Positions 6,000 through 42,450 of a stretch of DNA of 64,000 nt are shown piece by piece. Source of the stretch: Dreissena polymorpha (taxonomy: Eukaryota). The stretch covers positions 63,280,738 through 63,344,737 of the forward strand of contig NC_068355.1 in the NCBI RefSeq assembly GCF_020536995.1, read 5' to 3'. The notes below the pieces were generated by a model, which was not told the DNA's origin, did not search any database, and was given only the letters and a program-made list of their open reading frames with translations. Each line of letters starts with the position of its first letter. The stretch's first letter is position 1. A program made the position numbers and the translations under genes.

Positions 6000-8900
6000 A
6001 AGGGGTTTAAAAGCATTGAAAAGGAGACTTCAAAGCATGAAAGTGAGGTGAAGATAAACGTGTGATAGTGTTAAACAAGAAGAAACATATTTATAGGTAA
6101 AAGTTGTTAAAAGCACTGTTTTGTGCATTCAGGGACGACTGGGGAGTAGAGTGGTGCTAAGGCAACGCTTAAACCCCTCTAGGTCTGTCTGCTGTATAAT
6201 TGAGGCAGGTAGGCTGTTCCAAAGAACTACGGTGTAAGGAAAGAATGAGAATTTGAAGTAGTTGGCTGATGTATGTATTTGTCTGAATGAGAGTGGGTGC
6301 ATATGACGAGTCATCCTCATAGGCCTCTCAGGATATGATGGCGGCGGAATGGCTACCAAGTCAAACACAACCTTGCAAAACATAGTCAATCGGGAGAGGT
6401 CACGGCGGTACTTTAAAGTCTGCCAGCCAAGTTAAGATTGCATACCGGTGATACTGCTGTAAATGAGTAGTTGTTTTTCACCCCTCGGACTGCTCTTCGC
6501 TGTACTTTTTCTATTTTGTCAGTATTATATTTGATATGTGGGCGCCAGACAGAAGGAAGCATATTCTACCTGAGGTCTAACTAAGGTCTTATAGGCTACT
6601 TCTCTGATGTTTTCATTTTTAGTCTGTATATTCCTGCGGATGAGACAAAGAGATTTATTAGCATCTGTTGTAATATTGGTAATATGTTCGTTCAAAGAAA
6701 TATCATCTGAAATAGAAACACCTAAATATTTAGCACTGTCTACGACTTCGCGAATTTGTCCATGTAGCCTATAATTGAAGATGAATTTATGTTTTTTCTT
6801 AGATATAATAAGGACGACACATTTACTAGGGTTGAACTCAATGCCCCACAGGTTTTCCCAATGTACTAACTTGTCTAATCAATTTTGAAGAAAGGCGCAG
6901 TCTTGCAAGTTGTTAATAGCCAAGTATACAGCAGTGTCATCTGCAAACAAGCGGACTTGAGAAGAGATAGAATTAGGGACTTTAGTACTAAGCCTTGTGG
7001 CACGCCCGATGTTACAGGGACTCCTGATGAGCATTCTCCCTCCAGTACAACTGTTTGCGATCTACCAATGAAAAAAAAACTTGATCCAGGAAACTGTCGA
7101 TTTGTTAACTCCATGTTGCTGTAATTTAAAAAGTAATTTAAGGTGGCTGACTTTATCGAAAGCTTTGCTGAAGTCTAGAAGAATAAGATCTGTTTGCTGA
7201 CCATTTACAAGATTGCGAGCCAGCTTGTCGAAAAGTTTAATAAAGTGAGTTTCGCAGGATCGTCGTTCCCTGAAACCATGTTGAAGATCATACAAAATGT
7301 TATGTTTGTTAAAATGTGCTGTGAGGTTGGAAGCTACAATATGTTCTAAAACTTTACAAAGAATATATGTTAATGAGATAGGTTTATAGTTGGCTGGATC
7401 TTGTTTATTTCCTTTTTTTGAACAGTGGTACGACATTTGCAGTGGTCCAAATCTTTGGTAAAATACCTGTGTCACGAGATTTTTTGAAAGAGAAGAGATA
7501 GTACAGGTGAGATTTGATGACGAAGATTTTGAAGGACTAGTTGCCTGATGTTGTCTGGACCCGCAGCTTTGTGGGGTTTGAGGTTGGAAAGGAGCTGCAG
7601 AACGCCGAGATAGTAATTTCTGGCATGATAGGGTGTCTGCTACTTGAAGAAGAATGAACATTAGAATTTTCGGGGGCTGAAAAGCAAGATTGAGATAGAG
7701 TTAGAGGGGACATGGGGCTTAAAACTGACTGAAATTCATGATATTGGCTTTGTCTTTATTTGAAGATTTTGTTGTACCTGAAATTTTATCGTATAATGTC
7801 GAAATACCGCATGCATCTTGTTTGGCGCTCTTGATTAGACTGAAAAGTTTTTGGAGTTTAATTTTGAACTGGATTCAACTGTTTCTCAATTTTGGTCTTG
7901 TATGCCTAAAATATATATCCAATGTAATTATTATATGAAAATGTGATGGTCTTGTTGATCTGGTGTTTTAGATTTAAATTTTTAGATTAATTTTTGTTGT
8001 TTCATTCTTTCTTCATTTTGATGTAGAGTTTATCCCTTTTCCTCAATAAGCGTTTGATGGGCTGTGTTATCCATGGTAGGGAGACTTTTGGACCTATTCT
8101 TTTTATGTGAACGTTATCTGAAATTCCTGTGAATATAGCATTACATAATTTCTCCCAGATGAATTCCACTGATGCTGTTGAATAATATGACAAAATATCA
8201 TTAGACACACCCTCCATGCACTCTTTGAATCCATCTCAGTATATTTTCTTATATTTATGTTTTTGATGCATTTGTGTCGATTTAACACTGGCTGTGAAGG
8301 AAACAAGTTCGTGGTTTGAGATACCTGGAAAACAAGAAATATCATTTATTAGTGTGTGATTAGTAGTGAGAAAAAACCTCTTGTACTAACAGTAACCATT
8401 TGGGTCAGCCCAAATTCTGAAAGTAAGTAAATGAAATCATCATAAAGATTAATAAAATTACAATTGGGTTTAATAGATGGAACATGATCTGTACTCCATT
8501 AGAATTTTGGGTAGTTGAAGTCACCTAGGATCCAGAGATTTCTTTTTAATTTACTTGCAAGATCTAAAGATTTTTCTAAATTCCAATGCGCTGTTGGTAT
8601 CTGCTGCTTAAAGTCTGTAATAAGCTGCAATGTATAAAGGTTAACATGTTTCAAAAAGCTATTTCACCCAAATGATCTCGCAATCTGTTTTGAGTTGTTT
8701 TTGCTCAGATGCGATGATTGAATTTTTGACGAGGATAAATACTCCGCCTCCTTTACTTGATGTGTCTTGCCTGAAAGAGGAATAACCTAAACCTTGTGGA
8801 AAAAATTCACTATCTTTATGATCGTTATGTAGCCAGGACTCTGTTCCTACGACAATATCTGGTCGGTGGTGATCAAGTAATGCTATAAATCAAGGCTTTT

Positions 8901-9200
8901 TGTTCACTATGAATTGACAATTTACTAGGATAAGCTTTAATTTAGGATACTGTTTATCATATGACGCTTGGCGTTATGTTTAAGCTGGCGTACTTTGTCG
9001 TCTTGAGTCGGGTGAGTCAGTGCGAAGGTCACTCAAAGTGGAAAAGCTATTTTGCAATTTCAGGGAATCCATGGACAAAGATGAGTTGGTAGAAAAATTT
9101 ACCGCATCACAAATCGAGCACGCGTCACAGGCAACTAGATGATCATTTGAAGTTTGACTGATGTCCAGTGGCAGCTGATGTGAAACCAATTTATACAGGA
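6000..9200 (-). mobile_element. Degraded LINE copy with EN and RT domains, frameshifted.
   Basis: Minus-strand ORFs follow the LINE order from high to low coordinate. About 8880-8400 reads LLDHHRPDIVVGTESWL...FRQD.SSKGGGVFILV, an EN domain. 8217-8002 reads ...LPWITQPIKRLLRKRDKLY. 7661-7062 reads YKPISLTYILCKVLEHIV...QHGFRERRSCETHFI...LLDFSKAFDKVSH, RT motifs 1-3. 7114-6875 reads GVPQGLVL. 6389-6129 reads ...LWNSLP... at the C-terminus. Several frame breaks are present. Confidence 0.85.
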
Positions 9201-10338
9201 GTCACATTCAATGGCTGGTTCATTATCTTCTTTTTGACATCGGGAGACATGGACATAAGTAAAATACATAAATAAAATAATGACATGTTACGTGATGGTT
9301 TGACAGGTGGGGTAGGACCGCAGCGGCGCATGCTTTCCAAAAGACAAGTGCAGGCGACTGTTCTGGCTGGACGTAAGCTATTGCCTGTTCACTCAAAAAA
9401 GGAATACTGTGTCAGCCTCAGCCTGTGGAAACAACCTCAGACAGAAGACTGTAATAAATACTGTTAACAAAATACCTGAAAACATTATGTGCAGGGAAAT
9501 TGTTGTTGTTGTTGAAATGTACACAAACAAAATGATACAAAGTATATAAAAATAATACTATGGGCTTCCCTCTTGTGTAAGAAACCACGCCTTTACGAAA
9601 TAATAATTAATTTGGACGTTTAAACCGACTGTTTGTCAGGCAACGAACCCCAAATGCAATCGTCGTGTCCAAGTGGTGATGGAGGTTTCCTCACAATGCA
9701 GTTTCGTCACACTGATTTTATGAAGGAGGGCAGTGGAGTTTTCGTCACACTGCTATATTGTATTGAAAAAAATGATATTGTGCATGCGTTAAAATGATCA
9801 ATCTACTTGCGTTATTAATCTTGTTCACATCGCGAAATTGTATTACCGAATATACTGGAAATATGAACTTTTTCGAAGTAATGTAATATACCAGTCGTGA
9901 GAATTTAACCAATATAAACTATTAACTGTAAAATAATACGGTCTTTTACAACTTTTCTTTTTTCGTCAATCGCGGTTGACAGTCCCTTTAACACTTGCAT
10001 AACACTTTGAATATTATCCTTTATTCTACCATAATATCAACTTTCTCTTGTCGCGTAATATATGAATTAAACACATACTCGTGGAGCAAATAAAAACACG
10101 TCTACACCCTATCGACAACCAATTTACAATCATAAGATATTTCAATTATTGATGACTTGATATTGCAAACATATTAATTAGTGCGTTGCAAACAATCAAT
10201 TAGCGGCACACGCCTTTAATTGCCAATTAAACGAGTTGGCTTAAATTGGCAGCGTGGATTATACAAACTGTGTGCATTTATACATATAGAGTAAATAGCG
10301 TCTGTTAAACAAGAGTATATAACAGGGGAGTTGTTTAA

Positions 10339-10833
10339 TTGCAACAACAAATCCAATCATGGCTTCAGAATATCCATGCGTACACTATGAATGGAACGTT
10401 AATGACGATGATCGCGCAATATCGTGTGATCAATGCGCAAAAATCGCAACATCTGTCTTGTGACACAGGAATCATTCTAAGACAGTATCGCAAAATGATG
10501 AAGGGTGCTGTAGTCGAATGGAAATGTCGCATATGCAGCCGACCAGCAGAAGTCCTACCGGAGGTACCAATGGAAACCGCCGACATAGCAGAGGAGTCGG
10601 AACTCACAGCAGAAGTCCTACCGGAGGTACCGATGGAAACCGCCGACATATCAGAGGAGTCGAAACTCACGATACCTGAGATATCGGAGAGTCAAGATAG
10701 CTCATACATGTCAGAACTCTCGAGACACAATAAGAGACCAAGTAGAAGATCGGTCATTTTATATAACTGGCCGGAACATCGAAGCACCGATCGTGCCACT
10801 GGACCAATCAATACCGGAGCGTCCTCTAGGTGA
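10339..10833 (+). CDS. Uncharacterised ORF or exon with an internal 63-bp perfect-ish tandem duplication encoding AEVLPEVPMETADI(A/S)EES(E/K)LT twice. It may be the 5' exon of the MULE-like gene downstream.
   Basis: 164-aa ORF. The direct repeat lies at 10545-10607 versus 10608-10670. No recognisable domain. Confidence 0.25.
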   Translation: MQQQIQSWLQNIHAYTMNGTLMTMIAQYRVINAQKSQHLSCDTGIILRQYRKMMKGAVVEWKCRICSRPAEVLPEVPMETADIAEESELTAEVLPEVPMETADISEESKLTIPEISESQDSSYMSELSRHNKRPSRRSVILYNWPEHRSTDRATGPINTGASSR

Positions 10834-11116
10834 AGTAATAAGTGGGGGAAGTAAGATAGGCGGCAACAAGCTGATAAGCAGTGTTGGATAAACATCCACT
10901 GCTAGGGCACGTACATTATAAATAATAATGATGTTAATATTATGTATATATAATAATTATTTAAGATAATAATAATTCAAAATAATAATAATTTAAAATA
11001 ATAATAATCATTCAAAATAATAATAATTCAAAATAATAATAATAATTCGTAATAATAAAAAATAAATAATAATAATAATAATTTCTCGTATTATTTCAGC
11101 GTATTTTGCGAAGCAG

Positions 11117-11700
11117 GTGAAGGCTCTTGCAGAGGTTATGTACGGGTCTAAAAAGAATGTGTTCCAACCGGCAGCAAGCATAGTGGAAGACGACGTCAAC
11201 CTACCGCAACCGGCGAACCTCATCAGGGCTGCTAACCTCTACAGACAAAACATGCAACCAAAAGACCCAACCGATTTGAACTTTGATGTTATACTAATAA
11301 TAATTTATGAAGATGATAACGACCGCCATTGATATTCAATAATTGATAATTATATATAATATATTGTAAGATATATTGCAGCTCGATATCGACTTCATCG
11401 GCGTAGACTTCTTGGTGGATGACGTGCGTGTGGAACTCGCGCAACTTAAAGAAGCCCGTAGATGGATCACTGACGGAACTTTTAAGGTGGTAAAAAGTCC
11501 CTTCTACCAGCTCTTCACAATCCACACCTTCGTAAAAAAGCGAGGAAACTAAACAAGTACCCCTGGTGTATGTGTTCTGATGTCGAGGAGATCAAAGGAG
11601 GATTACATCCACGTGCTCACACGCATCAACCAACGTATTGAAAACCCGCAGGTGGGTTGGTTCATGTTGGACTTTGAAGCAGGTAAATTAACAAAACAGT
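11117..11700 (+). pseudogene. Mutator-like (MULE) DDE transposase fragment. It carries an in-frame stop and is probably split by short introns.
   Basis: Single + frame across 11380-11690 reads LDIDFIGVDFLVDDVRVELAQLKEARRWITDGTFKVVKSPFYQLFTIHTFVKKRGN*TSTPGVCVLMSRRSKEDYIHVLTRINQRIENPQVGWFMLDFEAG. This fits the MULE domain pattern D-G/A-T-F/Y-K ... pl.tl.gv ... vPla.al.s.E..esy.w.l ... i.tD.d.g. A gtaaat donor follows. The upstream ORF 11117-11332 is on the same strand. Confidence 0.5.
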
Positions 11701-14587
11701 TGTAAGATTGCATTGGTTGGTATTTTAATAGATCTACATGTATAATCAAATCAATTCAATTCAAAACTTCAATTTATCTAAATGTATTTAATTCATGAAC
11801 AGAAAATTAAAAAAACAACATGTTTTAACATGGAAGAAAGGTGTCAATCAAAGGTGCTAAAGTTCTCCGGTATTATTCACATCTATATATTACCATGGTG
11901 ACGAACCCTCTACCCGTTTTCAACAGTAAATTCATTGCGACGAAATTGCAGTGTGACGAAACCTGTATAAGTTCGTCATTTCTATTTTAAAATATCTGGT
12001 TCCCGACTTTCGTCAAATTGGTAATTGCTATAAATAAATATTGATTAGAAAGTAAGGAAGTGAACAAGACCAACCGCCGGTTAAGTGGTAAGAAATTTCG
12101 TTATATGTAACGAAAACATTTCTTTTAAATTAAATAAATATCACCTAATGATACACAAATATTTATTGCAACATTATATATATATATTGTTATTTTGTAA
12201 ATGTTGAGTATTTCGCAATTTAATTACATCGAAGGCGGGGGTACACCACGGGGAATCATGACAATCGTTCGTGCGTTATAAATATTAAAGAAATGTGTTC
12301 TATATTATTATTTCAACACACATATTTTGTTATGCCTAAAATATGATTGTGTGCTCTATTTTAACATGATTTTTTTATTATAAATAGATTCAATCATTTG
12401 CATAAACAGAGACGTAGATCTATGTCTCCGGCAAAAATAAATATTACTGTATTAATTGATTTCAACTTCAAGCCTGTACGTGTACATGAGTTTGAGGTAT
12501 TTATTTATGAGTCCATTTCATAATAATACAATCGCAATTCACAATAGGGATTGCATGTATACAGCCCCCCCCCCCCCGTATTTCGCAATATATAGAAACT
12601 GAACTCTTAAACTGAAAACGTAGGCACATTTTATATCACATTGAGACAGACTGTGTAAAGATTGTGAAATCCTTCACACCGAATTGATCAACTGGCAATG
12701 TTGAGGTGTATATATTGTTATAAAAATAGATATGAATCAAAGAATTACTTGCTATATATAATTTAAGCCTGTAGACTTTACCTGTACATAGCTAGCTGCA
12801 TTAGTTCATGCTAGAGAATATCAATTAAAGGATAATTAAGTATATATGTTATATTTTGCATGTTAACTATCAATTTAGTGATATTTCAATAATGATTACT
12901 GTGTTCATGAAAGTACTGAATTATAATATTCATTAAATCTCTTTGCAGTATTAATGTAAGTATATCTTATTTGTTGTTATTTGTACTTCAATAAGTTAAT
13001 TTTATAAAATGTTTACTAAATTAAAGTATAAAACATGGTTCACGCTGGGTAAGCGGATACTTTGATAACAGATGGCACTTCGATACCAGATAACAACAAA
13101 AGCCACGCGCGAGAGTTGAGTTATTCAGTTTTTTTGCATTTATGTTCTGTTCATTTGGTTTTCAGAGATGTAACATTGTTTGGTCTATTAATGGTAAAGT
13201 ACTTCATATTGCGGAGCAAGAAGTTCGTGAAAAAACAGTGGATTATAAAAAAAGAGATAATATTTCATCGATAATCATCATAAATTCGATGATCAGTACG
13301 TATTTAAACAAAATAAAAATACTCGAACATAAATCAAAAACGTGCCAACTAATTGAAATAAAAGATCAATATGTCCATTAATGTATCAACATGTTAAATT
13401 TTAGTTAACTGACGTATTTGAGGAAATTCAAATGTTTTCAGAGTCGGATGCCAAATTTTCATGGACACTTCTTTTACCGATCATCTGAAAAACAATGGCA
13501 CTTCGATTCCAGATAACTCGACACTTTTTACCAGATATTACACACTCTATTTAGTGAATCAGAAATGCAGAATTCACTGTTGAATACTGTAATAGTAAGC
13601 AGGCAATAAATATAAATGTATGTACTGATGTAAATTAAAAACAAATGACCAAAAAATGTTCATATCCCTTTGGAATATGATAATAAAAGGGAAAGGGAAG
13701 TATAAAGGGAAGTGCTTCCTATAAGTAGAGCTCAATGTAAAGGGAGTTTTCCAATCTCTCTTAAATTTTGTGGCTAAGCATTAGTATCGTCTTCATGATG
13801 CGATTTTAATGAGCACCAATTACCAAGGATTTTATGAGGTGTATTTGCCGCTTTAAGACCCCTTGCTCCCCTTATCTAGAGTCCTGCTATAAGTTCGATT
13901 GAACACAGTCGTGTTGATCCACATGGTCTGTTGTATTTTCAATTATCTTAATCTCAATTTACCACTTAAAAACAAGTTGATTACTTAGACAATGATTTTC
14001 GGTTGTCACTTGAAATATATTACTTCTGAAATAAGCATTTGAATCTTATTTAAAATTAGCACTTACAATATTAATTATATGAATTAATAGTAATAAGACT
14101 TTTGAAAACGAACAAAGCCATTGGTTCTATTTTACATGTGTATGTAATTATGTTATGCATAGATTCCCAATGTGTCGGGCTTGACAATGCAAATTGATTC
14201 GTACTTTAAAATGTTTGGTAAGAATAGCCACAATATACATAAATGCATTTCAGGTAGAAGATAAAACTCTGTTATCAGAGTGCCCAATTTGTTGAAAGTC
14301 TCTGTTATCCGAAGGGCCCTATTTCGTGAATCAAAGTATCCGCAACTTCATGAATACCACCTATAAAAACATGCTCTGTCTTGGTTTATATTTCATTGAA
14401 TACTATCAAAATTTTAGTATTTGAAGCACAGTAATTACTTTACATGCTGGAATATAAAACATTTTTTTGCAATATTTCTAAGTAGTTTTATTTTGTTGAA
14501 ATGTTTACTGTTCATCCAGTTTATGCTGTTTTCCGACCGAATTTTCTATTTTTTGGGGAAAAAATCTACCATTCTTCCGGGATTTTT

Positions 14588-18134: not shown

Positions 18135-18415
18135 TTAAGGGCGGCAATTATTTATATTTGTAAGGTAGCTCTTAGTGCGGCACTGCCGCCCCAACAAGTA
18201 GCTCATAGTGCGGCACTGCCACCCCAACAAGTAGCTCATAGTGCCGCTTTGCCACCCCAACAAGTAGCTCATAGTGCCGCACTGTTGCCCCAACAAGTAG
18301 CTCATAGTGCCGCACTGTTGCCCCAACAAGTAGCTCATAGTGCCGCACTGTTGCCCCAACAAGTAGCTCATAGTGCCTCACTGCCGCCCCAACAAGTAGC
18401 TCATAGTGCCGCACT
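18135..18415. repeat. 33-bp satellite, about 8.5 units. This is the proximal piece of the megaarray, separated from the rest by a transposon insertion.
   Basis: Unit GTAGCTCATAGTGCCGCACTGCCGCCCCAACAA repeated head-to-tail. Confidence 0.9.
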
Positions 18416-19640
18416 GCCCAGGGCTCGAATTAAGCACTCGCAAACAGGCCATTTGCGAGTACATTTTAAAAAACACGTCTAAAATGCGAGTGCAACATTT
18501 AGATACTCGCCATTTTTTGCGAGTTGGGGAAAAAACAAACAAGGTGCTTAAAGATCTTGGATTAAATACAAGATTTGTTCGCCGATCGAAAGTCTTCCGA
18601 CCAAGTACGAAAATAATTAAACCCCGTCTAGTTTCGATCTAAAAATAGATCTGAAAATTGGAATTACCCTAATTTGCATAATGTATTTCAGCGGTTACTT
18701 CCGTTCTAGCAGAAATAATTTTACGAAATATTTTTTAAAATATATTTACGCTCTGCACTGTATCTTTCTGCCGATATAGTTAGTAAAGAACATTGAAAAT
18801 TATATTATTGCAATTGAAAGTATGTTATTCCCTTCTTAAGTGAAAATTGGCGATAGTTATTCAGTATGAAGTTTTTTTTAAAACGAAGCTCATTTCGTTA
18901 ATTCCTCATTCTTATAAATAGACGGAACACGTTTAGCAGACGATTTAAAAACTCAAAAATGTCGTCTACTAAAAAAATAACTAGCTTTTTTGTGGCGAAT
19001 TCCTCCGTCTCCTCTGTGGAAGACAAAAAAGCCGAGGCCGAACCAGATAAAAAGAAATGCCAAAACAGTTAAGAAATGGGAAGACGAGCTAAAAATAACT
19101 TTGAACACGGAGAGAGACCAAGACGGCAATGTGTGTAAGATGTTCTGCGATTCATCTGATTGGTCTCTACCCCCTCAGCAATGCTGAGTGTGAAAGATGC
19201 TTTTCTGTTATGAAAAGGATAAAAAGTGATTGGCGATGTTCACTAAGCACTGAAAGGATGGACCAATTAATGCGAATCTCTATCAGAGATAATGAGGGGT
19301 TCCAGCCACGCAGAGCTGTGAATAGGTGGTGGATCAGTGGCAACAGTAGCAAAAGGCCAGATGTCGCCCCATATGGACCGAGGCATTAACTTTGGATGAT
19401 ATAACTGATATAAAAAAAAATACTCTTTACACTCAATTGTGTTACAATGTTGCTTTGAAGTTTTTAGTTAAAATAAACATAGGTCCATCCTTTCAGTGCT
19501 TAGTGAACATCGCCAATCACTTTTTATCAACCAAAGGATGCATTATTATGAAAACTTGTATTGCGAGTTGGAAATAAAAAATGCGAGTTGAAATATTAAC
19601 AACTAGCAATTTTTTGCGAGTTGAAAAAAAAAAGTAATTC
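18416..19640 (+). mobile_element. Non-autonomous hAT-like DNA transposon inserted in the satellite. It has ~15-bp TIRs CAGGGCTYGAATTA and subterminal GCGAGT motifs.
   Basis: Left end CAGGGCTCGAATTAAGCACTCGCAAAC. The reverse complement of the right end is CAGGGCTTGAATTAC...CAACTCGCAAAA. Multiple (A/T)TGCGAGT(T/A) subterminal repeats occur at both ends. The internal ORF has a hATC-like motif. Satellite is on both flanks. Confidence 0.6.
19129..19389 (+). pseudogene. hAT-family transposase C-terminal dimerisation (hATC) remnant.
   Basis: Translation reads ...LYPLSNAECERCFSVMKRIKSDWRCSLSTERMDQLMRISI. This matches the hATC consensus P.SSA..ER.FS.lk.IkT..R..l....l..L..i. The protein is N-terminally truncated and there is no DDE core. 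Confidence 0.6.
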
Positions 19641-22600
19641 AAGCCCTGAAGTAGCTCATAGTGCCTCACTGCCACCCCAACAAGTAGCTCATAGTGCCGC
19701 ACTGTTGCCCCAACAAGTAGCTCATAGTGCCTCACTGCCACCCCAACAAGTAGCTCATAGTGCCTCACTGCCGCCCCAACAAGTAGCTCATAGTGCCGCA
19801 CTGCCGCCCCAACAAGTAGCTCATAGTGCCTCACTGCCACCCCAACAAGTAGCTCATAGTGCCTCACTGCCGCCCCAACAAGTAGCTCATAGTGCCGCAC
19901 TGTTGCCCGAACAAGTAGCTCATAGTGCCGCACTGCCACCCCAACAAGTAGCTCATTGTGCCTCACTGCCGCCCCAACAAGTAGCTCATAGTGCCTCACT
20001 GCCGCCCCAACAAGTAGCTCATAGTGCCGCACTGCCACCCCAACAAGTAGCTCATAGTGCCGCACTGCCGCCCCAACAAGTAGCTCATAGTGCTGCACTG
20101 CCACCCCAACAAGTAGCTCATAGTGCTGCACTGCCGCCCCAACAAGTAGCTCATAGTGCCTCACTGCCGCCCCAACAAGTAGCTCATAGTGCCTCACTGC
20201 CACCCCAACAAGTAGCTCATAGTGCCTCACTGCCGCCCCAACAAGTAGCTCATAGTGCCTTACTGCCACCCCAACAAGTAGCTCATAGTGCCTCACTGCC
20301 GCCCCAACAAGTAGCTCATAGTGCCGCACTGTTCCCCCAACAAGTAGCTCATAGTGCCTCACTGCTGCCCCAACAAGTAGCTCATTGTGCCTCACTGCCA
20401 CCCGAACAAGTAGCTCATAGTGCCGCACTGCCACCCCAACAAGTAGCTCATAGTGCCGCACTGTTGCCCCAACAAGTAGCTCATAGTGCCTCACTGCCAC
20501 CCCAACAAGTAGCTCATAGTGCCTCACTGTTGCCCCAACAAGTAGCTCATAGTGCCGCACTGCCGCCCCAACAAGTAGCTCATAGTGCCTCACTGCCACC
20601 CCAACAAGTAGCTCATAGTGCCTCACTGCCACCCCAACAAGTAGCTCATAGTGCCGCACTGTTGCCCCCAACAAGTAGCTCATAGTGCCTCACTGCCACC
20701 CCAACAAGTAGCTCATAGTGCCGCACTGCCGCCCCAACAAGTAGCTCATAGTGCCTCACTGCCGCCCCAACAAGTAGCTCATAGTGCCGCACTGCCACCC
20801 CAACAAGTAGCTCATAGTGCCACACTGCAACCCCAACAAGTAGCTCATAGTGCCGCACTGCCGCCCCAACAAGTAGCTCATAGTGCCTCACTGCCGCCCC
20901 AACAAGTAGCTCATAGTGCCTCACTGCCACCCCAACAAGTAGCTCATAGTGCCGCACTGCCGCCCCAACAAGTAGCTCATAGTGCCTCACTGCCGCCCCA
21001 ACAAGTAGCTCATAGTGCCGCACTGCCGCCCCAACAAGTAGCTCATAGTGCCTCACTGCCGCCCCAACAAGTAGCTCATAGTGCCTCACTGCCACCCCAA
21101 CAAGTAGCTCATAGTGCCTCACTGCCACCCCAACAAGTAGCTCATAGTGCCGCACTGTTGCCCCAACCAGTAGCTCATAGTGCCGCACTGCCACCCCAAC
21201 AAGTAGCTCATAGTGCCTCACTGCCGCCCCAACAAGTAGCTCATAGTGCGGCACTGCCGCCCCAACAAGTAGCTCATAGTGCCTCACTGCCACCCAAACA
21301 AGTAGCTCATAGTGCCGCACTGCCGCCCCAACAAGTAGCTCATAGTGCCGCACTGTTGCCCCAACAAGTAGCTCATAGTGCCGCATTGCCGCCCCAACAA
21401 GTAGCTCATAGTGCCTTACTGCCACCCCAACAAGTAGCTCATAGTGCCGCACTGCCGCCCCAACAAGTAGCTCATAGTGCCGCACTGTTGCCCCAACAAG
21501 TAGCTCATAGTGCGGCACTGCCGCCCCAACAAGTAGCTCATAGTGCCTCACTGCCACCCCAACAAGTAGCTCATAGTGCCGCACTGCCGCCCCAACAAGT
21601 AGCTCATAGTGCCGCACTGTTGCCCCAACAAGTAGCTCATAGTGCCTCACTGCCGCCCCAACAAGTAGCTCATAGTGCCTCACTGTTGCCCCAACAAGTA
21701 GCTCATAGTGCCTCACTGCCACCCCAACAAGTAGCTCATAGTGCCTCACTGCCGCCCCAACAAGTAGCTCATAGTGCCGCACTGCCACCCCAACAAGAAG
21801 CTCATAGTGCCGCACTGTTGCCCCAACAAGAAGCTCATAGTCCCGCACTGCCGCCCCACCAAGTAGCTCATAGTGCCTCACTGCCACCCCAACAAGTAGC
21901 TCATAGTGCCTCACTGCCACCCCAACAAGTAGCTCATAGTGCCTCACTGCCACCCCAACAAGTAGCTCATAGTGCCTCACTGCCACCCCAACAAGTAGCT
22001 CATAGTGCCGCACTGCCACCCCAACAAGTAGCTCATAGTGCCGCACTGTTGCCCCAACAAGAAGCTCATAGTCCCGCACTGCCGCCCCAACAAGTAGCTC
22101 ATAGTGCCTCACTGCCACCCCAACAAGTAGCTCATAGTGCCTCACTGCCACACCAACAAGTAGCTCATAGTGCCTCACTGCCACCCCAACAAGTAGCTCA
22201 TAGTGCCTCACTGTTGCCCCAACAAGTAGCTCATAGTGCCTCACTGCCACCCCAACAAGTAGCTCATAGTGCCTCACTGCCACCCCAACAAGTAGCTCAT
22301 AGTGCCTCACTGCCACCCCAACAAGTAGCTCATAGTGCCTCACTGCCACCCCAACAAGTAGCTCATAGTGCCTCACTGCCACCCCAACAAGTAGCTCATA
22401 GTGCCTCACTGCCACCCCAACAAGTAGCTCATAGTGCCTCACTGCCGCCCCAACAAGTAGCTCATAGTGCCTCACTGCCGCCCCAACAAGTAGCTCATAG
22501 TGCCTCACTGCCACCCCAACAAGTAGCTCATAGTGCCGCACTGCCACCCCAACAAATAGCTCATAGTGCCTCACTGCCACCCCAACAAGTAGCTCATAGT

Positions 22601-25600
22601 GCCTCACTGCCACCCCAACAAGAAGCTCATAGTGCCTCACTGCCACCCCAACAAGTAGCTCATAGTGCCTCACTGCCACCCCAACAAGTAGCTCATAGTG
22701 CTGCACTGCCACCCCAACAAGTAGCTCATAGTGCCTCACTGCCACCCCAACAAGTAGCTCATAGTGCCTCACTGCCGCCCCAACAAGTAGCTCATAGTGC
22801 CTCACTGCCGCCCCAACAAGTAGCTCATAGTGCCGCACTTCCACCCCAACAAGTAGCTCATAGTGCCTCACTGCCACCCCAACAAGTAGCTCATAGTGCC
22901 ACACTGCCACCCCAACAAGTAGCTCATAGTGCCTCACTGCCGCCCCTACAAGTAGCTCATAGTGCCTCACTGCCACCCCAACAAGTAGCTCATAGTGCCT
23001 CACTGCCGCCCCCAACAAGTAGCTCATAGTGCCTCACTGCCACCCCAACAAGTAGCTCATAGTGCCTCACTGCCGCCCCAACAAGTAGCTCATAGTGCCG
23101 CACTGTTGCCCGAACAAGTAGCTCATAGTGCCGCACTGCCACCCCAACAAGTAGCTCATTGTGCCTCACTGCCACCCCAACAAGTAGCTCATAGTGCCTC
23201 ACTGCCACCCCAACAAGTAGCTCATAGTGCCGCACTGCCACCCCAACAAGTAGCTCATAGTGCCGCACTGCCACCCCAACAAGTAGCTCATAGTGCCTCA
23301 CTGCTGCCCCAACAAGTAGCTCATAGTGCCGCACTGTCGCCCCAACAAGTAGCTCATAGTGCCGCACTGCCGCCCCAACAAGTAGCTCATAGTGCCTCAC
23401 TGCCGCCCCAACAAGTAGCTCATAGTGCCGCACTGCCGCCCCAACAAGTAGCTCATAGTGCCTCACTGCCGCCCCAACAAGTAGCCCATAGTGCCTCACT
23501 GTCGCCCAAACAAGTAGCTCATAGTGCCTCACTGCCGCCCCAACAAGTAGCTCATAGTGCCTCACTGCCGCCCCAACAAGTAGCTCATAGTGCCTCACTG
23601 CCGCCCCAACAAGTAGCTCATAGTGCCTCACTGCCGCCCAAACAAGTAGCTCATAGTGCTGCACTGCTGCCCCAACAAGTAGCTCATAGTGCCGCACTGC
23701 TGCCCCAACAAGTAGCTCATAGTGCCGCACTGTTGCCCCAACAAGTAGCTCATAGTGCCTCACTGCCACCCCAACAAGTAGCTCATAGTGCCGCACTGCC
23801 ACCCCAACAAGTAGCTCATAGTGCCTCACTGCCACCCCAACAAGTAGCTCATAGTGCCGCACTGTTGCCCCCAACAAGTAGCTCATAGTGCTGCACTGCC
23901 ACCCCAACAAGTAGCTCATAGTGCTGCACTGCCGCCCCAACAAGTAGCTCATAGTGCCTCACTGCCGCCCCAACAAGTAGCTCATAGTGCCTCACTGCCA
24001 CCCCAACAAGTAGCTCATAGTGCCTCACTGCCGCCCCAACAAGTAGCTCATAGTGCCTTACTGCCACCCCAACAAGTAGCTCATAGTGCCTCACTGCCGC
24101 CCCAACAAGTAGCTCATAGTGCCGCACTGTTCCCCCAACAAGTAGCTCATAGTGCCTCACTGCTGCCCCAACAAGTAGCTCATTGTGCCTCACTGCCACC
24201 CGAACAAGTAGCTCATAGTGCCGCACTGCCACCCCAACAAGTAGCTCATAGTGCCGCACTGCCACCCCAACAAGTAGCTCATAGTGCCTCACTGCTGCCC
24301 CAACAAGTAGCTCATAGTGCCGCACTGTCGCCCCAACAAGTAGCTCATAGTGCCGCACTGCCGCCCCAACAAGTAGCTCATAGTGCCTCACTGCCGCCCC
24401 AACAAGTAGCTCATAGTGCCGCACTGCCGCCCCAACAAGTAGCTCATAGTGCCTCACTGCCGCCCCAACAAGTAGCCCATAGTGCCTCACTGTCGCCCAA
24501 ACAAGTAGCTCATAGTGCCTCACTGCCGCCCCAACAAGTAGCTCATAGTGCCTCACTGCCGCCCCAACAAGTAGCTCATAGTGCCTCACTGCCGCCCCAA
24601 CAAGTAGCTCATAGTGCCTCACTGCCGCCCAAACAAGTAGCTCATAGTGCTGCACTGCTGCCCCAACAAGTAGCTCATAGTGCCGCACTGCTGCCCCAAC
24701 AAGTAGCTCATAGTGCCGCACTGTTGCCCCAACAAGTAGCTCATAGTGCCTCACTGCCACCCCAACAAGTAGCTCATAGTGCTGCACTGCCACCCCAACA
24801 AGTAGCTCATAGTGCCTCACTGCCGCCTCAACAAGTAGCTCATAGTGCCGCACTGCCGCCCCAACAAGTAGCTCATAGTGCCGCACTGCCACCCCAACAA
24901 GTAGCTCATAGTGCCTCACTGCCACCCCAACAAGTAGCTCATAGTGCCGCACTGCCGCCCCAACAAGTAGCTCATAGTGCCGCACTGTTGCCCCAACAAG
25001 TAGCTCATAGTGCTGCACTGCCACCCCAACAAGTAGCTCATAGTGCCTCACTGCCACCCCAACAAGTAGCTCATAGTGCCTCACTGCCACCCCAACAAGT
25101 AGCTCATAGTGCCGCACTGCCGTCCCAACAAGTAGCTCATAGTGCCTCACTGCCACCCCAACAAGTAGCTCATAGTGCCGCACTGCCGCCCCAACAAGTA
25201 GCTCATAGTGCCTCACTGCCGCCCCAACAAGTAGCTCATAGTGCCGCACTGCCGCCCCAACAAGTAGCTCATAGTGCCTCACTGCCATCCGAACAAGTAG
25301 CTCATAGTGCCTCACTGCCGCCCCAACAAGTAGCTCATAGTGCCTCACTGCCGCCCCAACAAGTAGCTCATAGTGCCTCACTGCCGCCCCAACAAGTAGC
25401 TCATAGTGCCTCACTGCCGCCCCAACAAGTAGCTCATAGTGCCTCACTGCCGCCCCAACAAGTAGCTCATAGTGCCTCACTGCCGCCCCAACAAGTAGCT
25501 CATAGTGCCTCACTGCCGCCCAACAAGTAGCTCATAGTGCCTCACTGCCGCCCAAACAAGTAGCTCATAGTGCCTGCACTGCTGCCCCAACAAGTAGCTC

Positions 25601-28600
25601 ATAGTGCCGCACTGCTGCCCCAACAAGTAGCTCATAGTGCCGCACTGTTGCCCCCAACAAGTAGCTCATAGTGCCTCACTGCCGCCCCCAACAAGTAGCT
25701 CATAGTGCCGCACTGCCGCCCCAACAAGTAGCTCATAGTGCCGCACTGCCCACCCCCAACAAGTAGCTCATAGTGCCGCACTTGCCACCCCAACAAGTAG
25801 CTCATAGTGCCTCACTGCCACCCCCAACAAGTAGCTCATAGTGCCGCACTTGCCGCCCCAACAAGTAGCTCATAGTGCCTCACTGCCACCCCAACAAGTA
25901 GCTCATAGTGCCGCACTGCCGCCCCAACAAGTAGCTCATAGTGCCTCACTGCCGCCCCAACAAGTAGCTCATAGTGCCGCACTGCCGCCCCAACAAGTAG
26001 CTCATAGTGCCTCACTGCCACCCGAACAAGTAGCTCATAGTGCCTCACTGCCGCCCCAACAAGTAGCTCATAGTGCCTCACTGCCGCCCCAACAAGTAGC
26101 TCATAGTGCCTCACTGCCGCCCCAACAAGTAGCTCATAGTGCCTCACTGCCGCCCCAACAAGTAGCTCATAGTGCCTCACTGCCGCCCCAACAAGTAGCT
26201 CATAGTGCCTCACTGCCGCCCCAACAAGTAGCTCATAGTGCCTCACTGCCGCCCGAACAAGTAGCTCATAGTGCCTCACTGCTGCCCCAACAAGTAGCTC
26301 ATAGTGCCTCACTGCCGCCCGAACAAGTAGCTCATAGTGCCTCACTGCGGCCCCAACAAGTAGCTCATAGTGCCTCACTGCCGCCCCAACAAGTAGCTCA
26401 TAGTGCCTCACTGCCGCCCGAACAAGTAGCTCATAGTGCCTCACTGCTGCCCCAACAAGTAGCTCATAGTGCCTCACTGCCGCCCCAACAAGTAGCTCAT
26501 AGTGCCTCACTGCGGCCCGAGCAAGTAGCTCATAGTGCCTCACTGCTGCCCCAACAAGTAGCTCATAGTGCCTCACTGCCGCCCAAACAAGTAGCTCATA
26601 GTGCCTCACTGCCGCCCCAACAAGTAGCTCATAGTGCCTCACTGCCGCCCCGAACAAGTAGCTCATAGTGCCTCACTGCTGCCCCAACAAGTAGCTCATA
26701 GTGCCTCACTGCCGCCCCAACAAGTAGCTCATAGTGCCGCACTGCCGCCCCAACAAGTAGCTCATAGTGCCTCACTGCCACCCGAACAAGTAGCTCATAG
26801 TGCCTCACTGCCGCCCCAACAAGTAGCTCATAGTGCCTCACTGCCGCCCCAACAAGTAGCTCATAGTGCCTCACTGCCGCCCCAACAAGTAGCTCATAGT
26901 GCCTCACTGCCGCCCCAACAAGTAGCTCATAGTGCCTCACTGTTGCCCCAACAAGTAGCTCATAGTGCCGCACTGCTGCCCCAACAAGTAGCTCTTAGTG
27001 CCGCACTGCCACCCCAACAAGTAGCTCATAGTGCCGCACTGTTGCCCCCAACAAGTAGCTCATAGTGCCTCACTGCCGCCCCAACAAGTAGCTCATAGTG
27101 CCTCACTGCCGCCCCAACAAGTAGCTCATAGTGCCTCACTGCTGCCCCAACAAGAAGCTCATAGTGCCTCACTGCCACCCAACAAGTAGCTCATAGTGCT
27201 GCACTGCTGTCCCAACAAGTAGCTCATAGTGCTGCACTGCTGCCCCAACAAGTAGCTCATAGTGCCGCACTGCCGCCCCAACAAGTAGCTCATAGTGCCG
27301 CACTGTTGCCCCCAACAAGTAGCTCATAGTGCCTCACTGCCGCCCCAACAAGTAGCTCATAGTGCCTCACTGCCACCCGAACAAGTAGCTCATAATGCCT
27401 CACTGCCGCCCCAACAAGTAGCTCATAGTGCCTCACTGCCACCCCAACAAGTAGCTCATAGTGCCTCACTGCCGCCCCAACAAGTAGCTCATAGTGCCTC
27501 ACTGCCGCCCCAACAAGTAGCTCATAGTGCCTCACTGCCACCCCAACAAGTAGCTCATAGTGCTGCACTGTTGCCCCCAACAAGTAGCTCATAGTGCCTC
27601 ACTGCCACCCCAACAAGTAGCTCATAGTGCCTCACTGCCGCCCCCAACAAGTAGCTCATAGTGCCTCACTGCCGCCCCAACAAGTAGCTCATAGTGCCTC
27701 ACTGCCACCCAAACAAGTAGCTCATAGTGCTGCACTGTTGCCCCCAACAAGTAGCTCATAGTGCCGCACTGCCACCCCAACAAGTAGCTCATAGTGCCTC
27801 ACTGCCACCCGAACAAGTAGCTCATAGTGCCTCACTGCCACCCCAACAAGTAGCTCATAGTGCCTCACTGCCGCCCCAACAAGTAGCTCATAGTGCCTCA
27901 CTGCCACCCCAACAAGTAGCTCATAGTGCCTCACTGCCACCCCAACAAGTAGCTCATAGTGCCTCACTGCCGCCCAAACAAGTAGCTCATAGTGCCACAC
28001 TGCCACCCCAACAAGTAGCTCATAGTGCCTCACTGCCGCCCCAACAAGTAGCTCATAGTGCCTCACTGCCGCCCCAACAAGTAGCTCATAGTGCCTCACT
28101 GCCGCCCCAACAAGTAGCTCATAGTGCCTCCTGCCCCCAACAAGTAGCTCATAGTGCCTCTCTGCCACCCCAACAAGTAGCTCATAGTGCCGCACTGCCG
28201 CCCCAACAAGTAGCTCATAGTGCCTCAATGCCACCCGAACAAGTAGCTCATAGTGCCTCACTGCCGCCCTAACAAGTAGCTCATAGTGCCTCACTGCCGC
28301 CCGAACAAGTAGCTCATAGTGCCTCACTGCTGCCCCAACAAGTAGCTCATAGTGCCTCACTGCCGCCCGAACAAGTAGCTCATAGTGCCTCACTGCGGCC
28401 CCAACAAGTAGCTCATAGTGCCTCACTGCCGCCCCAACAAGTAGCTCATAGTGCCTCACTGCCGCCCGAACAAGAAGCTCATAGTGCCTCACTGCTGCCC
28501 CAACAAGTAGCTCATAGTGCCTCACTGCCGCCCCAATAAGTAGCTCATAGTGCCTCACTGCGGCCCGAACAAGTAGCTCATAGTGCCGCACTGTTGCCCC

Positions 28601-29335
28601 AACAAGTAGCTCATAGTGCCTCACTGCCACCCCCAACAAGTAGCTCATAGTGCCGCACTGCCGCCCCAACAAGTAGCTCATAGTGCCTCACTGCCACCCC
28701 AACAAGTAGCTCATAGTGCCGCACTGCCGCCCCAACAAGTAGCTCATAGTACCTCACTGCCACCCCAACAAGTAGCTCATAGTGCCTCACTGCCACCCCA
28801 ACAAGTAGCTCATAGTGCCTCACTGCCACCCCAACAAGTAGCTCATAGTGCCTCACTGCCACCCCAACAAGTAGCTCATAGTGCCTCACTGCCGCCCCAA
28901 CAAGTAGCTAATAGTGCCTCACTGCCGCCCCAACAAGTAGCTCATAGTGCCTCACTGCCACCCAAACAAGTAGCTCATAGTGCTGCACTGTTGCCCCCAA
29001 CAAGTAGCTCATAGTGCCGCACTGCCACCCCAACAAGTAGCTCATAGTGCCTCACTGCCACCCCAACAAGTAGCTCATAGTGCCTCACTGCCACCCCAAC
29101 AAGTAGCTCATAGTGCCTCACTGCCACCCCAACAAGTAGCTCATAGTGCCTCACTGCCACCCCAACAAGTAGCTCATAGTGCCTCACTGCCGCCCCAACA
29201 AGTAGCTCATAGTGCCTCACTGCCGCCCCAACAAGTAGCTCATAGTGCCTCACTGCCACCCGAACAAGTAGCTCATAGTGCCGCACTGCCGCCCCAACAA
29301 GTAGCCCATAGTGCCGCACTGTTGCCCCAACAATT
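19640..29335. repeat. 33-bp satellite megaarray, about 294 units over ~9.7 kb, with S/A and P/L-type variant units, sporadic 34-bp (+C) units, and internal higher-order segmental duplications.
   Basis: Perfect 33-nt periodicity with consensus GTAGCTCATAGTGCCTCACTGCC(A/G)CCCCAACAA. Duplicated blocks include ~23040-23870 versus ~24190-24780, 20220-20470 versus 24050-24300, and 26250-26560 versus 28290-28600. A more degenerate zone lies at 25500-25860. Confidence 0.95.
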
Positions 29336-31164: not shown

Positions 31165-32035
31165 TTTTTATGTCCCCCACTATAGTAGTGGAAGACATAT
31201 TGTTTTTGCCCTGTCTGTTGGTCTGTTTGTTGGTTGGTCTGTTGGTTGGTTGGTTGGTTTGCGCCAACTTTAACATTTGCAATAACTTTTGCAATATTGA
31301 AGATAGCAACTTGATATTAAGCATGCAAATGTATCTCATGGAGCTGCACATTTTGAGTGGTGAAAGGTCAAGGTCAAGGTCATCCTTCAAGGTCAGAGGT
31401 CAAATATATGGGTCAAAATGGCTCATTTAATGTACACTTTTGCAGTATTTCAATATTCAAGATAGCAACTTGATATTTATCATGCATGTGTATCTCATGG
31501 AGCTGCACATTTTTAGTGGTGAAAGGTCAAGGTCATCCTTCAAGGTCAGATGTAAAATATATGTGGCCAAAATCGCTCATTCTATCAGACCTTTTGCAAT
31601 ATTGAAGATAGCAACTTGATATTTGGCATGCATGTGTATCTCATGGAGCTGCACATTTTGAGTGGTGAAAGGTCAAGGTCATCCTTCAAGGTCAGAGGTC
31701 AAATATATGTGGCCCAAATCGCTTATTTTATGAATACTTTTGCAATATTGAAGATAGCATCTTGATATTTGGCATGCATGTGTATCTCATGGAGCTGCAC
31801 ATTTTGAGTGGTGAAAGGTCAAGGTCATCCTTCAATGTCAAATATATGGGTCAAAATTGCTCATGTAATGTCACTTCTGCAATATTGAAGCTAGCAATTT
31901 TATATTTGAAATGCATGTGTATCTCATGAAGCTGCACATTTTGAGTGGTGAAGGGTCAAGGTCAAGGTCATCCTTCAAGGTCAAACGTCATATAGGGGAC
32001 ATTGTGTTTCACAAACGCATCTTGTTGGCTAAGTT
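31165..32035 (+). mobile_element. Hairpin-(GTCT)n-satellite element with five ~150-bp internal repeats, inside MVP intron 1.
   Basis: Head ttttatgtcccccactatagtagtggaagacatattgtttttgccctgtctgttggtctgtttg. Core repeats ttgaagatagcaacttgatat...ggtcagaggtcaaatatatg are at ~31290, 31440, 31590, 31745 and 31870. Tail ggggacattgtgtttcacaaacgcatcttgtt. Confidence 0.6.
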
Positions 32036-40467: not shown

Positions 40468-40587
40468 GGAGAGCTGTCATTTTTCCTGATGCCAGGTGAG
40501 CAATTGGAGCGAGGCATACAGAACGTCTACATCCTGGGGGAAGACGAGGGACTCATCCTGCGGGCAAACGAGACATTCACTGATGGG
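40468..40587 (+). CDS. MVP: MVP exon 6: [40 protein letters not shown].
   Basis: Acceptor tttcag|GGA. Conserved [23 protein letters not shown]. Donor GGG|GTAGGG. Confidence 0.9.
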
Positions 40588-42450
40588 GTAGGGCACATTG
40601 ATATGTACAGTGGTGTTAGTTAATCAGACATTCATAGATGGGGTAGGGCATATTGAGTTGTACAGTGGTAACAGTTAATGAGACGTTCATAGATTGGGAA
40701 GGCCACATTGAGATGTACAGTGGCACCAGTTAATGAGACATTCATAGACAGGGTAGGGCACATTGAGATTTACAGTGGTACTGGTTAATTAGACATTCAT
40801 AGATTGGGTAGGGCACATTCAGATGTACAGTGGTATTTTTATGCCTCCGAAGGAGGGCATATAGTGATCGCATTGTCCTTCTGTCTTTCCAGCATACTTA
40901 TGCGTTTAGGTTTCGAAAAATGCACATAACTTCTATATCGCTTCAGATGTAACCTTAATATTTGGTATGCATGTGTATATGGACCAGGCCTTTCCATATG
41001 CACACACATTTTGACCCCTTTGACTTTTACCTTGAACTTAGGGTCCGCGTTAAGGTTTCAAAATCTGCGTTTAGGTTTCGAAAAAAGAGTTTTTATGGGG
41101 CATATGTCTTCCGATGGAGACAGCTCTTGTTGTGAATAAGACATGCACAAACGAGGTAAGGTATACTGAGATGTTCAGTCGAACTGCTTAATGAGACATT
41201 CATAGATTGGGTAGGGCACACTGAGATGAACAGTGCTGTTGGTTAATGAGACATTCATAGACATTTATAGAAGGATTAGGGCGTGAAAAGATACTCAGAT
41301 GTACAGTGGAGTTTTTTAATGAGACATTCATTGACACATAGGGAACATTTATATATATAGTGGTATAAGTTATTGAGACATTCACTGACGGGTAGGGTAT
41401 GTTGAGATTAACAGTGGTGTTGGTTAATAAGACATACACAGGCATCGTAGAGTGCATAAAGATGTACAGTGGAATTAGTTGTTGAGACATTCATAGACAG
41501 GGTAGAGCGTGAAGATATAAGGAGATTTACAGTGGTGTTTAATGAGTTGTTTATAGACTGGGTAAGGGTACATTGAGATGTACTGTGGTATTAATTATTG
41601 AGACAATTATAGACAGGGTAGGGCACACTGCGATGTAAAGTGGTGTTAGGCAATGAGACATTAATATACAGGGTCGGGCATATTGAGATGTTCAGTGCTT
41701 TTAGTTAATGAGACATTCAAAGATGGGGTCAGGCACATTGAGATGTACAGAGGTATTTGGTATTAAGACAATCATTGACAAGGTAGGGCACACTGAGATG
41801 TACAGTGATGCATGTATAAGCTATTGAGACAATCATAGACAGGGTAGGGCGTGAAGATATACTGAGATGTACAGTGGTATTAGTTGTGAGACATTCATAG
41901 ATGGGGTAGGGCACATTGAGATGTACTGTGGTATTAATTATTGAGGCAATTATAGACAGAGTAGGGCAAACAGATGAACAGTGGTGTTAGTTAATGAGAA
42001 ATGCACAGACAGGGTAGGGTGCATTTAGATGTACAGTGGAATTAGTTATATAGACAGTCATAGACGGGATAGGGCGTGACGATATACTGAAATGAACAGT
42101 GGTTTTAGTTAATGAGACATTCATAGATGGGGTAGGGCATATTAAAATATACAGTGGTTTTAGTTAATTATACATTAATTGGTATTAGTAAATGAGACTT
42201 TCATAGACAGGGTTGGGCACACTGATCAGTGATGTTGGTTAATTAAACATTAATAGATGGGGTAGGGGGCATTGGATGTACAATGGTACTGGTTAATGAG
42301 AAATTTATATATGGGTTAAAAAACATTGAGATGTAGAGTGGTATTAGTTATGAGACATTCATAGACAGGGTAGGGTATGAAGAGATACTGAGATATACAG
42401 TGATGTTGGCATATGAGACATTCATAGAGGGGGAAGGGCACATTAAGTAG
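40588..42450 (+). repeat. Intronic minisatellite in MVP intron 6: a ~59-bp unit in about 26 copies that starts at the exon 6 donor.
   Basis: Unit aatgagacattcatagatggggtagggcacattgagatgtacagtggtattagtta. The first unit overlaps the exon end (acgagacattcactgatggg|gtagggcacattgatatgtacagtgg). The array is interrupted by an element insertion at 40843-41135. Confidence 0.85.
40843..41135 (+). mobile_element. Hairpin-headed element inserted into the intron 6 minisatellite.
   Basis: Head tttttatgcctccgaaggagggcatatagtgatcgcattgtccttctgtc, tail tttttatggggcatatgtcttccgatggagacagctcttgtt. The minisatellite resumes on both sides. Confidence 0.55.

Follow-up and report, generated by a model that had tools for sequence, protein, structure and literature searches.

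A probable internally deleted hAT5-type transposon within a satellite array of the zebra mussel

The DNA considered here is a stretch of 64,000 nucleotides from the zebra mussel, Dreissena polymorpha (assembly GCF_020536995.1, contig NC_068355.1, positions 63,280,738 to 63,344,737 of the forward strand), the whole of which we call the window. It holds an array of a 33-nt satellite, GTAGCTCATAGTGCCGCACTGCCGCCCCAACAA, and inside that array lie 1,230 nt of AT-rich DNA, unrelated to the satellite, that separate two satellite blocks. This interruption (18419-19648) is the subject of our analysis. Very probably it is a copy, internally deleted and non-autonomous, of a hAT DNA transposon that belongs to the zebra-mussel lineage and is itself autonomous; the type is hAT5, whose hallmark is a target-site duplication (TSD) of 5 bp. 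Both of its termini remain, as do the 5' leader and, joined together, codons 1-70 (less a 20-nt deletion) and the last 79 codons of a 707-residue transposase.

Anatomy of the inserted element

The termini of the element abut the last and first bases of the satellite, which has the same 33-nt unit on both sides. Each end carries a 14-nt terminal inverted repeat (TIR). The two arms begin CAGGG, as befits a superfamily whose short TIRs start with YAG (CAG or TAG), are complementary at 13 of 14 positions, and sit exactly on both satellite junctions. As a matter of arithmetic, with the boundaries set independently by the satellite, the chance of at least 13 matches in 14 is about 43/4^14, or 1.6e-7. 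The single mismatch may be native to the family, since the TIRs of its relatives are imperfect too; the ends themselves are homologous to those of six related elements, described below. Just inside the TIRs are repeats of the motif TGCGAGT. The window holds 15 copies, against 3.5 expected and a maximum of nine among shuffled sequences, and the seven that fall within the element all lie no more than 106 nt from its left end or 87 nt from its right end. The left subterminal region also contains a palindromic module, ACTCGC-N8-GCGAGT, the sole match in the window to ACTCGC-N(3-12)-GCGAGT, a pattern that never appeared in 100 shuffles. These subterminal regions are presumed, from their sequence, to be where the transposase binds.

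Between the ends are the remains of a gene. When we aligned the 707-residue Dreissena protein (P0166 in our numbering; see the next section) to the window with tblastn, residues 1-34 fell at 18959-19060, residues 42-70 at 19062-19148 and residues 629-707 at 19150-19386, each at 100% identity. All 142 comparable residues are therefore the same in the two. Two deletions account for the rest. The smaller removed 20 nt and shifted the frame into an early stop; the larger took codons 71-628, and with them the remainder of the zinc finger, the DUF4371 region and the RNase H-like DDE core, leaving one presumed catalytic position, the glutamate in CERCFS. Because those codons are gone, the copy cannot make transposase: with both termini kept and the middle of the gene missing relative to P0166, it is a Ds-like internal-deletion derivative. 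We considered calling it a miniature inverted-repeat transposable element and rejected the label, which describes high-copy elements under about 800 bp that lack coding remnants; this one is 1,230 bp long and retains 143 codons of the transposase. A possible core promoter, TATAAATA, can be read upstream of the transposase ATG.

An oddity of this copy is that 50 nt of transposase-coding sequence recur, inverted, in the 3' non-coding part, the two arms being identical at 49 of 50 positions. No equivalent inverted repeat was found in the six related elements. Folded as RNA, 19205-19540 gives -130 kcal/mol (z = -11.3). An apparent tblastn extension of the duplication past 50 nt contains stops, and we discarded it as spurious.

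An initial annotation of the window had recognized much of this. It had described a hAT-like, non-autonomous transposon inserted into the satellite, with inverted CAGGG termini, GCGAGT-type subterminal repeats at both ends and no DDE core, and each of these points is borne out: hAT-like identity by the perfect match to P0166, by the structural model of that protein and by relatives that pass the Dimer_Tnp_hAT profile; non-autonomy and the missing core by the loss of codons 71-628. The interruption itself was correctly seen, although its bounds (18416-19640) were set 3 nt too far left and fell 8 nt short on the right. The translation quoted for the open reading frame (ORF) at 19129-19389 also agrees with ours. 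That ORF encodes 86 residues. The first seven (MCVRCSA) come from the 5' exon in a frame other than its own; the remainder aligns to the natural C terminus of the family and is identical to P0166 629-707, and the alignment supports the claim that a hATC end is retained. Taken alone, the ORF matches Pfam Dimer_Tnp_hAT (PF05699) at profile positions 45-79 of 84 with E 0.007 and 16.6 bits, short of the gathering score of 21.4. Pfam searches with this and the other ORFs of the element returned nothing beyond that sub-threshold match.

Several observations concern the satellite and the rest of the window. Over the whole array (18165-29333, about 9.9 kb of satellite), monomer variants are grouped in blocks, and length variants run from 30 to 35 nt, mostly through one additional C in the C-run. 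A unit of 33 nt is 11 codons, so the satellite yields long spurious ORFs on both strands (388 and 354 aa, for example). A literature search by sequence matched the satellite to no paper in the library searched, and a wider literature search gave nothing specific on Dreissena hAT elements or satellites. No second copy of the element was found in the 64 kb by blastn, by TIR pattern or by motif-module pattern. We also asked whether the satellite might be the interior of a larger element; inverted repeats around the whole array scored 19 in the best local alignment against a shuffle mean of 18.5, and the idea was dropped.

Table 1. Features of the element and its setting (window coordinates), with six related elements (coordinates on their own contigs)
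Feature	Position	Strand	Remarks
Left satellite block, 33-nt unit	18165-18418	.	7.7 units; terminal letters GCACTGCC, breaking 23 nt into the unit
Non-autonomous hAT5-type element (very probable), complete	18419-19648	+	1,230 bp; left end 5' of transposase start, right end 3' of stop
Left TIR	18419-18432	+	CAGGGCTCGAATTA; continues as AGCACTCGCA, matching the left-end signature of related elements
Left subterminal region	18433-18540	+	TGCGAGT at 18436 (-), 18454, 18485, 18518
Palindromic module ACTCGCCATTTTTTGCGAGT	18505-18524		Inside left subterminal region; ACTCGC-N8-GCGAGT
Candidate core promoter TATAAATA	18913-18920	+	Begins 46 nt upstream of transposase ATG; direct sequence reading
Transposase codons 1-34 (MSSTKKITSFFVANSS...DKKKC)	18959-19060	+	100% identical to P0166 and P0152
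20-nt deletion site	19060-19062	+	Codons 35-41 (RRTNPSP) cut to one base; frame shifted, stop at 19070-19072
Transposase codons 42-70 (KTVKKWEDELKITLNTERDQDGNVCKMFC)	19062-19148	+	100% identical; ends on first Cys of zf-C17orf113-type zinc finger
Large internal deletion junction	19149-19151	+	Codon 70 fused to 629; 558 codons lost
Transposase codons 629-707 and native stop (19387-19389)	19150-19389	+	C-terminal part of hAT dimerisation domain; 79/79 identical to P0166
Inverted duplication, first arm (coding IKSDWRCSLSTERMD)	19218-19267	+	50 nt
Inverted duplication, second arm	19479-19528	-	49/50; in 3' non-coding part
Right subterminal region	19562-19634	+	TGCGAGT at 19562, 19582, 19615; degenerate module ACTAGCAATTTTTTGCGAGT
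Right TIR	19635-19648	-	CAGGGCTTGAATTA on minus strand (TAATTCAAGCCCTG as read on the window); inward T-run typical of the group's right ends
Right satellite block, 33-nt unit	19649-29333	.	293 units; first letters AAGTAGCT
Related element L002	3971-6988		TSD CAAAA
Related element L004	5955-10879		TSD CCTTC
Related element L006	4088-6807		TSD AAACAT (6 bp)
Related element L011	1461-4470		TSD GCATC
Related element L013	4070-7841		TSD CAGAT
Related element L015	438-7211		TSD CATAG

The full-length transposase and its relatives

P0166 came to light through an alignment-based search. It is annotated as 'zinc finger protein 862-like [Dreissena polymorpha]', and the identical 707-aa sequence is filed under XP_052223803.1, XP_052223804.1, XP_052224449.1 and XP_052233596.1, on two contigs; the family has several identical full-length copies. 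Our first homologue search, which was word-indexed and used the ORF as query, returned a single Logan protein (P0001, 62% identical, from a contig of 1 kb that has an intron-like gap). P0166, at 100% identity, escaped it, so a near-empty result of that search is weak evidence. An exhaustive search with a profile built from two sequences was far more generous: 4,138 proteins reached E <= 1e-3, and in the longer of them the matching part was always C-terminal. Nine of 10 long relatives pass Pfam Dimer_Tnp_hAT at the aligned position; seven match zf-C17orf113, five of them above the gathering score, and three match DUF4371, all below threshold. Neither a 24-mer from the left end nor a 30-mer from the coding repeat had a match when metagenomes were scanned.

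The 5' remnant was harder to place. A profile of the N-terminal zinc finger, built from eight distant relatives, ranked it second of 2,546 frames at E 0.31, which is not significant. Its identity was settled afterwards by near-identical Dreissena proteins: besides P0166, a bridged translation of the 5' part from 18959 onward matched a 104-aa Dreissena polymorpha protein (P0152; KAH3888326.1 and KAH3791362.1), annotated at loci DPMN_012358 and DPMN_144846, where the first exon is intact. These 'hypothetical proteins' consist of the first exon of the transposase (P0166 residues 1-82) followed by about 20 unrelated residues. Because that tail resembles read-through into an intron, the autonomous element probably has introns. 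A related locus, L001, likewise has an intron-like gap. A second 'zinc finger protein 862-like' model in Dreissena polymorpha (P0180; XP_052257937.1, 411 aa) represents a sister family; with an N-terminal zinc finger fused to the C-terminal half of a transposase, it looks like one more transposon copy that lost its interior and was then taken for a gene.

What kind of protein is P0166? Pfam finds zf-C17orf113 at residues 60-112 (33.3 bits; cut-off 29.5), and the precomputed matches add DUF4371 and PF27073 (FAM200-ZBED5_RNase-like), the last of which also occurs on other relatives. PF05699 gave no match to P0166 at E <= 0.01, and a sequence search of the PDB with the family profile gave none either. 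Structure was more telling. An AlphaFold model of P0166, computed with 18 family members, has a mean predicted local distance difference test (pLDDT) score of 81.8 and a predicted template-modelling score (pTM) of 0.70, and in a Foldseek comparison with the PDB every one of its 11 best matches is Hermes hAT transposase (E 5e-11 to 7e-8, probability 1.00, with some 570-600 columns aligned); after these comes the P-element transposase at E 0.02. The model has the RNase H-like DDE core with an all-alpha insertion that defines the Hermes fold, in the region absent from the window copy. Across the family alignment D215, D219, D282, R375, W376 and E643 are invariant and H315 nearly so, positions that presumably correspond to the DDE triad, CxxH and RW motifs of Hermes. 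As judged from the predicted structure, P0166 is a hAT transposase with a Hermes-type fold.

For the transposon as a whole we turned to contigs from other assemblies that encode relatives of the transposase, and looked around each gene for inverted 13-mers. A first scan for TIRs flanked by an 8-nt TSD gave only chance-like pairs; the real ends emerged once the TSD constraint was lifted, with one CAGGG... pair at each of six loci (Table 1). Five of these six independent elements are bounded by exact 5-nt TSDs, for each of which the chance expectation is 1/1024. Aligned together, seven left and seven right ends prove homologous and end-specific. The left-end consensus reads CAGGGYTCGAAWTTAGCACTCGCA-AACTCGC-AAAT-GCGAGT and the right-end consensus CAGGGYTCGAAYTTAACTTTTT...ACTNGCAAA...TTTTGCNAGT; each end of the window copy clusters with its counterparts, left with left and right with right, in the correct orientation to the gene. 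One of these elements, L011 (ENA ERZ27314264, k141_34747), has its right terminus twice, at 4322 and 4470, 148 nt apart and CAGGGCTCGAACTTAACTTTTTAG in both; the outer terminus alone pairs with a 5-nt TSD, GCATC. Directly downstream of another, L013, are Helitron-like genes (Helitron_like_N, Peptidase_C48 and DUF6570; 7856-12764 of ENA ERZ25073285 ctg8339), which suggests a nest of transposons in an unrelated genome.

Elements with 5-bp TSDs define the hAT5 group (PMC12730594, PMC9004415). According to these two papers, the name was given by Kapitonov & Jurka 2007 (Repbase Reports), along with hAT6 for 6 bp, and the group falls in an animal lineage with Blackjack. The Pfam family FAM200-ZBED5_RNase-like, shared with animal hATs on the Buster/Blackjack side, offers the one indirect link. 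Since five of six relatives have exact 5-nt TSDs, we place the lineage among those hAT families whose TSDs are 5 bp long; from the TSD length and the domain content of the relatives, it appears to belong with the hAT5-type animal hATs. Four points limit this account of the window copy. The comparison of its termini covered relatives from other assemblies; placement in hAT5 follows the TSD length of those relatives; the ORF alone stays under the Pfam gathering score for Dimer_Tnp_hAT; and the copy itself has no TSD, so that its own flanks do not support canonical integration. The last of these occupies much of what follows.

Age of the copy and the missing duplication

How would such a copy arise and move? 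If it behaves as hAT elements generally do, transposase made by full-length siblings would bind at the TGCGAGT modules of the subterminal regions and cleave at the CAGGG termini, with hairpins left on the DNA to either side, and the element would reinsert with a 5-nt stagger. The window copy would move only with the 707-aa transposase supplied in trans. Its internal deletion, 20-nt deletion and 50-nt inverted duplication could all be products of interrupted or template-switching gap repair after excision, much as Ac gives rise to Ds; the duplication in particular we read as template switching during repair.

The copy is young. It codes for no working protein, and in such a sequence the identity of all 142 residues to P0166, together with the 49/50 match between the duplication arms, points to low divergence, by our estimate roughly <1% at non-synonymous sites. 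Its flanks tell a different kind of story. On the left the satellite ends ...CACTGCC and on the right it resumes AAGTAGC..., and there is no TSD of 5, 6 or 8 nt at this copy. The distance from satellite anchor to satellite anchor across the element is 1,255 nt, that is 1,230 + 25, so exactly 8 nt of the interrupted unit (RCCCCAAC) have been lost. This is the sole partial-unit break among some 300 monomers: a -8 nt step is seen at the element's site and nowhere else, and every other deviation in spacing is of only 1-3 nt (spacings of 30-35 nt).

The initial annotation had described these flanks accurately, gcactgcc against aagtagct with no clean 8-bp TSD and part of a unit missing. Its expectation of 8 bp, 'as in Ac and hobo', was misplaced: relatives with the same termini make 5-bp TSDs (6 bp in one case), so the search was aimed at the wrong length. 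TSDs measure 8 bp in most hAT groups and 5-7 bp in some. Its explanation, an old insertion whose TSD was erased as the satellite turned over by unequal exchange and conversion, has in its favor the missing TSD and partial unit, the fact that satellite arrays do turn over, and the blockwise arrangement of monomer variants in this one. We nevertheless consider it improbable. Exchange between satellite units cannot alter or remove the bases that adjoin the element, the -8 nt step occurs nowhere else in the array, and the copy is young; old insertion followed by turnover is rejected on these grounds, and we infer instead that the missing TSD is a lesion of the junction, made by flank deletion or by exchange between two copies. 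The account we favor is a 13-nt flank deletion flush with one terminus, which would have removed one 5-nt copy of the TSD plus 8 nt. Such a loss could follow abortive one-ended cleavage and subsequent end-joining. For Ac and Tam3, losses of flanking DNA that start right where the element stops have been described. Next in order, and a reasonable second choice even if we doubt it, is that the copy is a recombinant of two insertions of the same derivative in one array, one flanked by CTGCC and the other by AAGTA, with the DNA between them deleted. This explains unrelated flanks and intact ends with no extra assumptions about deletion end-points; several identical copies of the family exist, and hAT elements tend to reinsert nearby, as established for Ac. 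It requires, on the other hand, two independent insertions of one derivative in one array, plus an exchange, and the 64 kb contain no second copy. Capture of an excised linear copy by end-joining, where a double-strand break had opened the satellite and 8 nt of target were lost, with no strand transfer, would be expected to leave the element's ends precise, the target slightly shortened and no TSD. It is nonetheless unlikely in our estimation: captured DNA is usually nibbled too, yet both termini here are complete by comparison with relatives. Flank deletion, two-copy exchange and capture are all compatible with the window, and it is on balance that we put flank deletion ahead and exchange second.

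Two further possibilities were weighed. One is that the odd junctions come from a mis-join of reads. Long satellites are hard to assemble, and read errors could account for the monomers of 34 nt with their additional C, but a mis-join would not be expected to place its junctions at complete element termini on both sides, and we think an artefact very improbable. The other is that no transposon is involved, the sequence being a fragment of a host ZNF862-like pseudogene that came by chance to lie within satellite. The NCBI label on the full-length protein, 'zinc finger protein 862-like', could be taken that way, and ZNF862-type genes in vertebrates are domesticated hATs. Such a fragment would hardly have a TIR exactly at each junction and subterminal motif arrays; relatives at six other loci lie between these end-specific termini and have TSDs, the identical 707-aa protein is encoded at several loci, and the family conserves the DDE, CxxH and RW positions. 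We regard it as the least probable of all the alternatives. A deleted hAT5-type copy whose flank was later damaged remains the account we prefer. A more speculative thought, and a decidedly long shot, is that the 50-bp stem could feed small-RNA silencing of intact autonomous copies in the manner of Mu killer, and that the TSD-less junction with its 8-nt loss could record non-canonical integration or abortive excision by a hAT5 transposase.

Neighboring repeats, implications and known systems

The remainder of the window is rich in other repeats. Short tandem arrays of two to six copies of 113-191-nt units lie at 31286-31964 and 58103-58643, at 32356-32807 and 48992-49728, and at 32805-33139 and 50468-50987, with further arrays at 54699-57663 and 60425-61085. 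For several of them the same unit is found at two places in the window, and several carry a AAGGTCAAGGTCATCC motif; they look like dispersed satellite-like central repeats of mobile elements, as described in bivalves. At 34036-34953 is a C-rich block of low complexity, made of C runs and TTTTTTTT-AAACATC spacers with a period of about 80-170 nt, and the GC skew over 34001-35000 is -0.92. Two more tandem arrays lie at 40570-42166 and 42907-43597. One unit measures 55 nt, is present some 20 times over two blocks and has a G-rich skew; the other, TTTATCAATAGTCCCAATGG, is of 20 nt and degenerate.

For annotation the message is a practical one. P0166 under its four XP accessions, P0180, DPMN_012358 and DPMN_144846 look like transposase genes, or fragments of them, from a hAT5-type family and not like host genes. 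Identical full-length copies and a deletion derivative that matches them perfectly suggest current or very recent activity in an invasive species, and such activity could supply insertion-polymorphism markers. The end-specific termini of seven elements, the ACTCGC-N-GCGAGT modules and the 5-bp TSD make up a compact definition of the family, whose sibling copies would be expected to be bounded by CAGGGCTYGAATT.

How does this element compare with those already known? It resembles the hAT5 group in being an animal hAT with short TIRs from CAG and a transposase predicted to have the hAT fold, and in that five of six relatives with the same termini have 5-bp TSDs; it departs from the group in that the window copy has no TSD and one relative has 6 bp, membership being assigned by the TSD length of relatives only. 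The closest analogy for its architecture is Ac/Ds of maize, where ends and subterminal motif arrays are likewise kept, the middle of the transposase deleted and movement dependent on transposase in trans, and where the TIR of Ac also starts CAGGG. Ac, however, makes 8-bp TSDs and belongs to a plant and fungal clade, whereas here 5 bp are expected and the transposase combines a zf-C17orf113-type finger at its N terminus with DUF4371 and FAM200-ZBED5_RNase-like regions. Hermes of Musca domestica (PDB 2BW3, 4D1Q and 8SJD) shares the fold of the P0166 model and the conserved DDE, CxxH and RW positions, but sequence identity is 13-14% and Hermes TSDs are 8 bp. The hAT-derived vertebrate genes ZNF862, C17orf113 and FAM200-ZBED5 share the domain families zf-C17orf113, DUF4371, FAM200-ZBED5_RNase-like and hATC, and 'ZNF862-like' is the NCBI name of the relatives; those are single-copy host genes without termini, whereas the gene family here lies between TIRs with TSDs and has multiple identical copies. 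Last is Mu killer of maize, in which part of MuDR is duplicated in inverted form and MuDR is silenced by way of a hairpin RNA. Like the window copy it is defective and carries an inverted duplication of transposase-coding sequence that can form a long stem. The stem here is only 50 bp, and the resemblance is one of form only.

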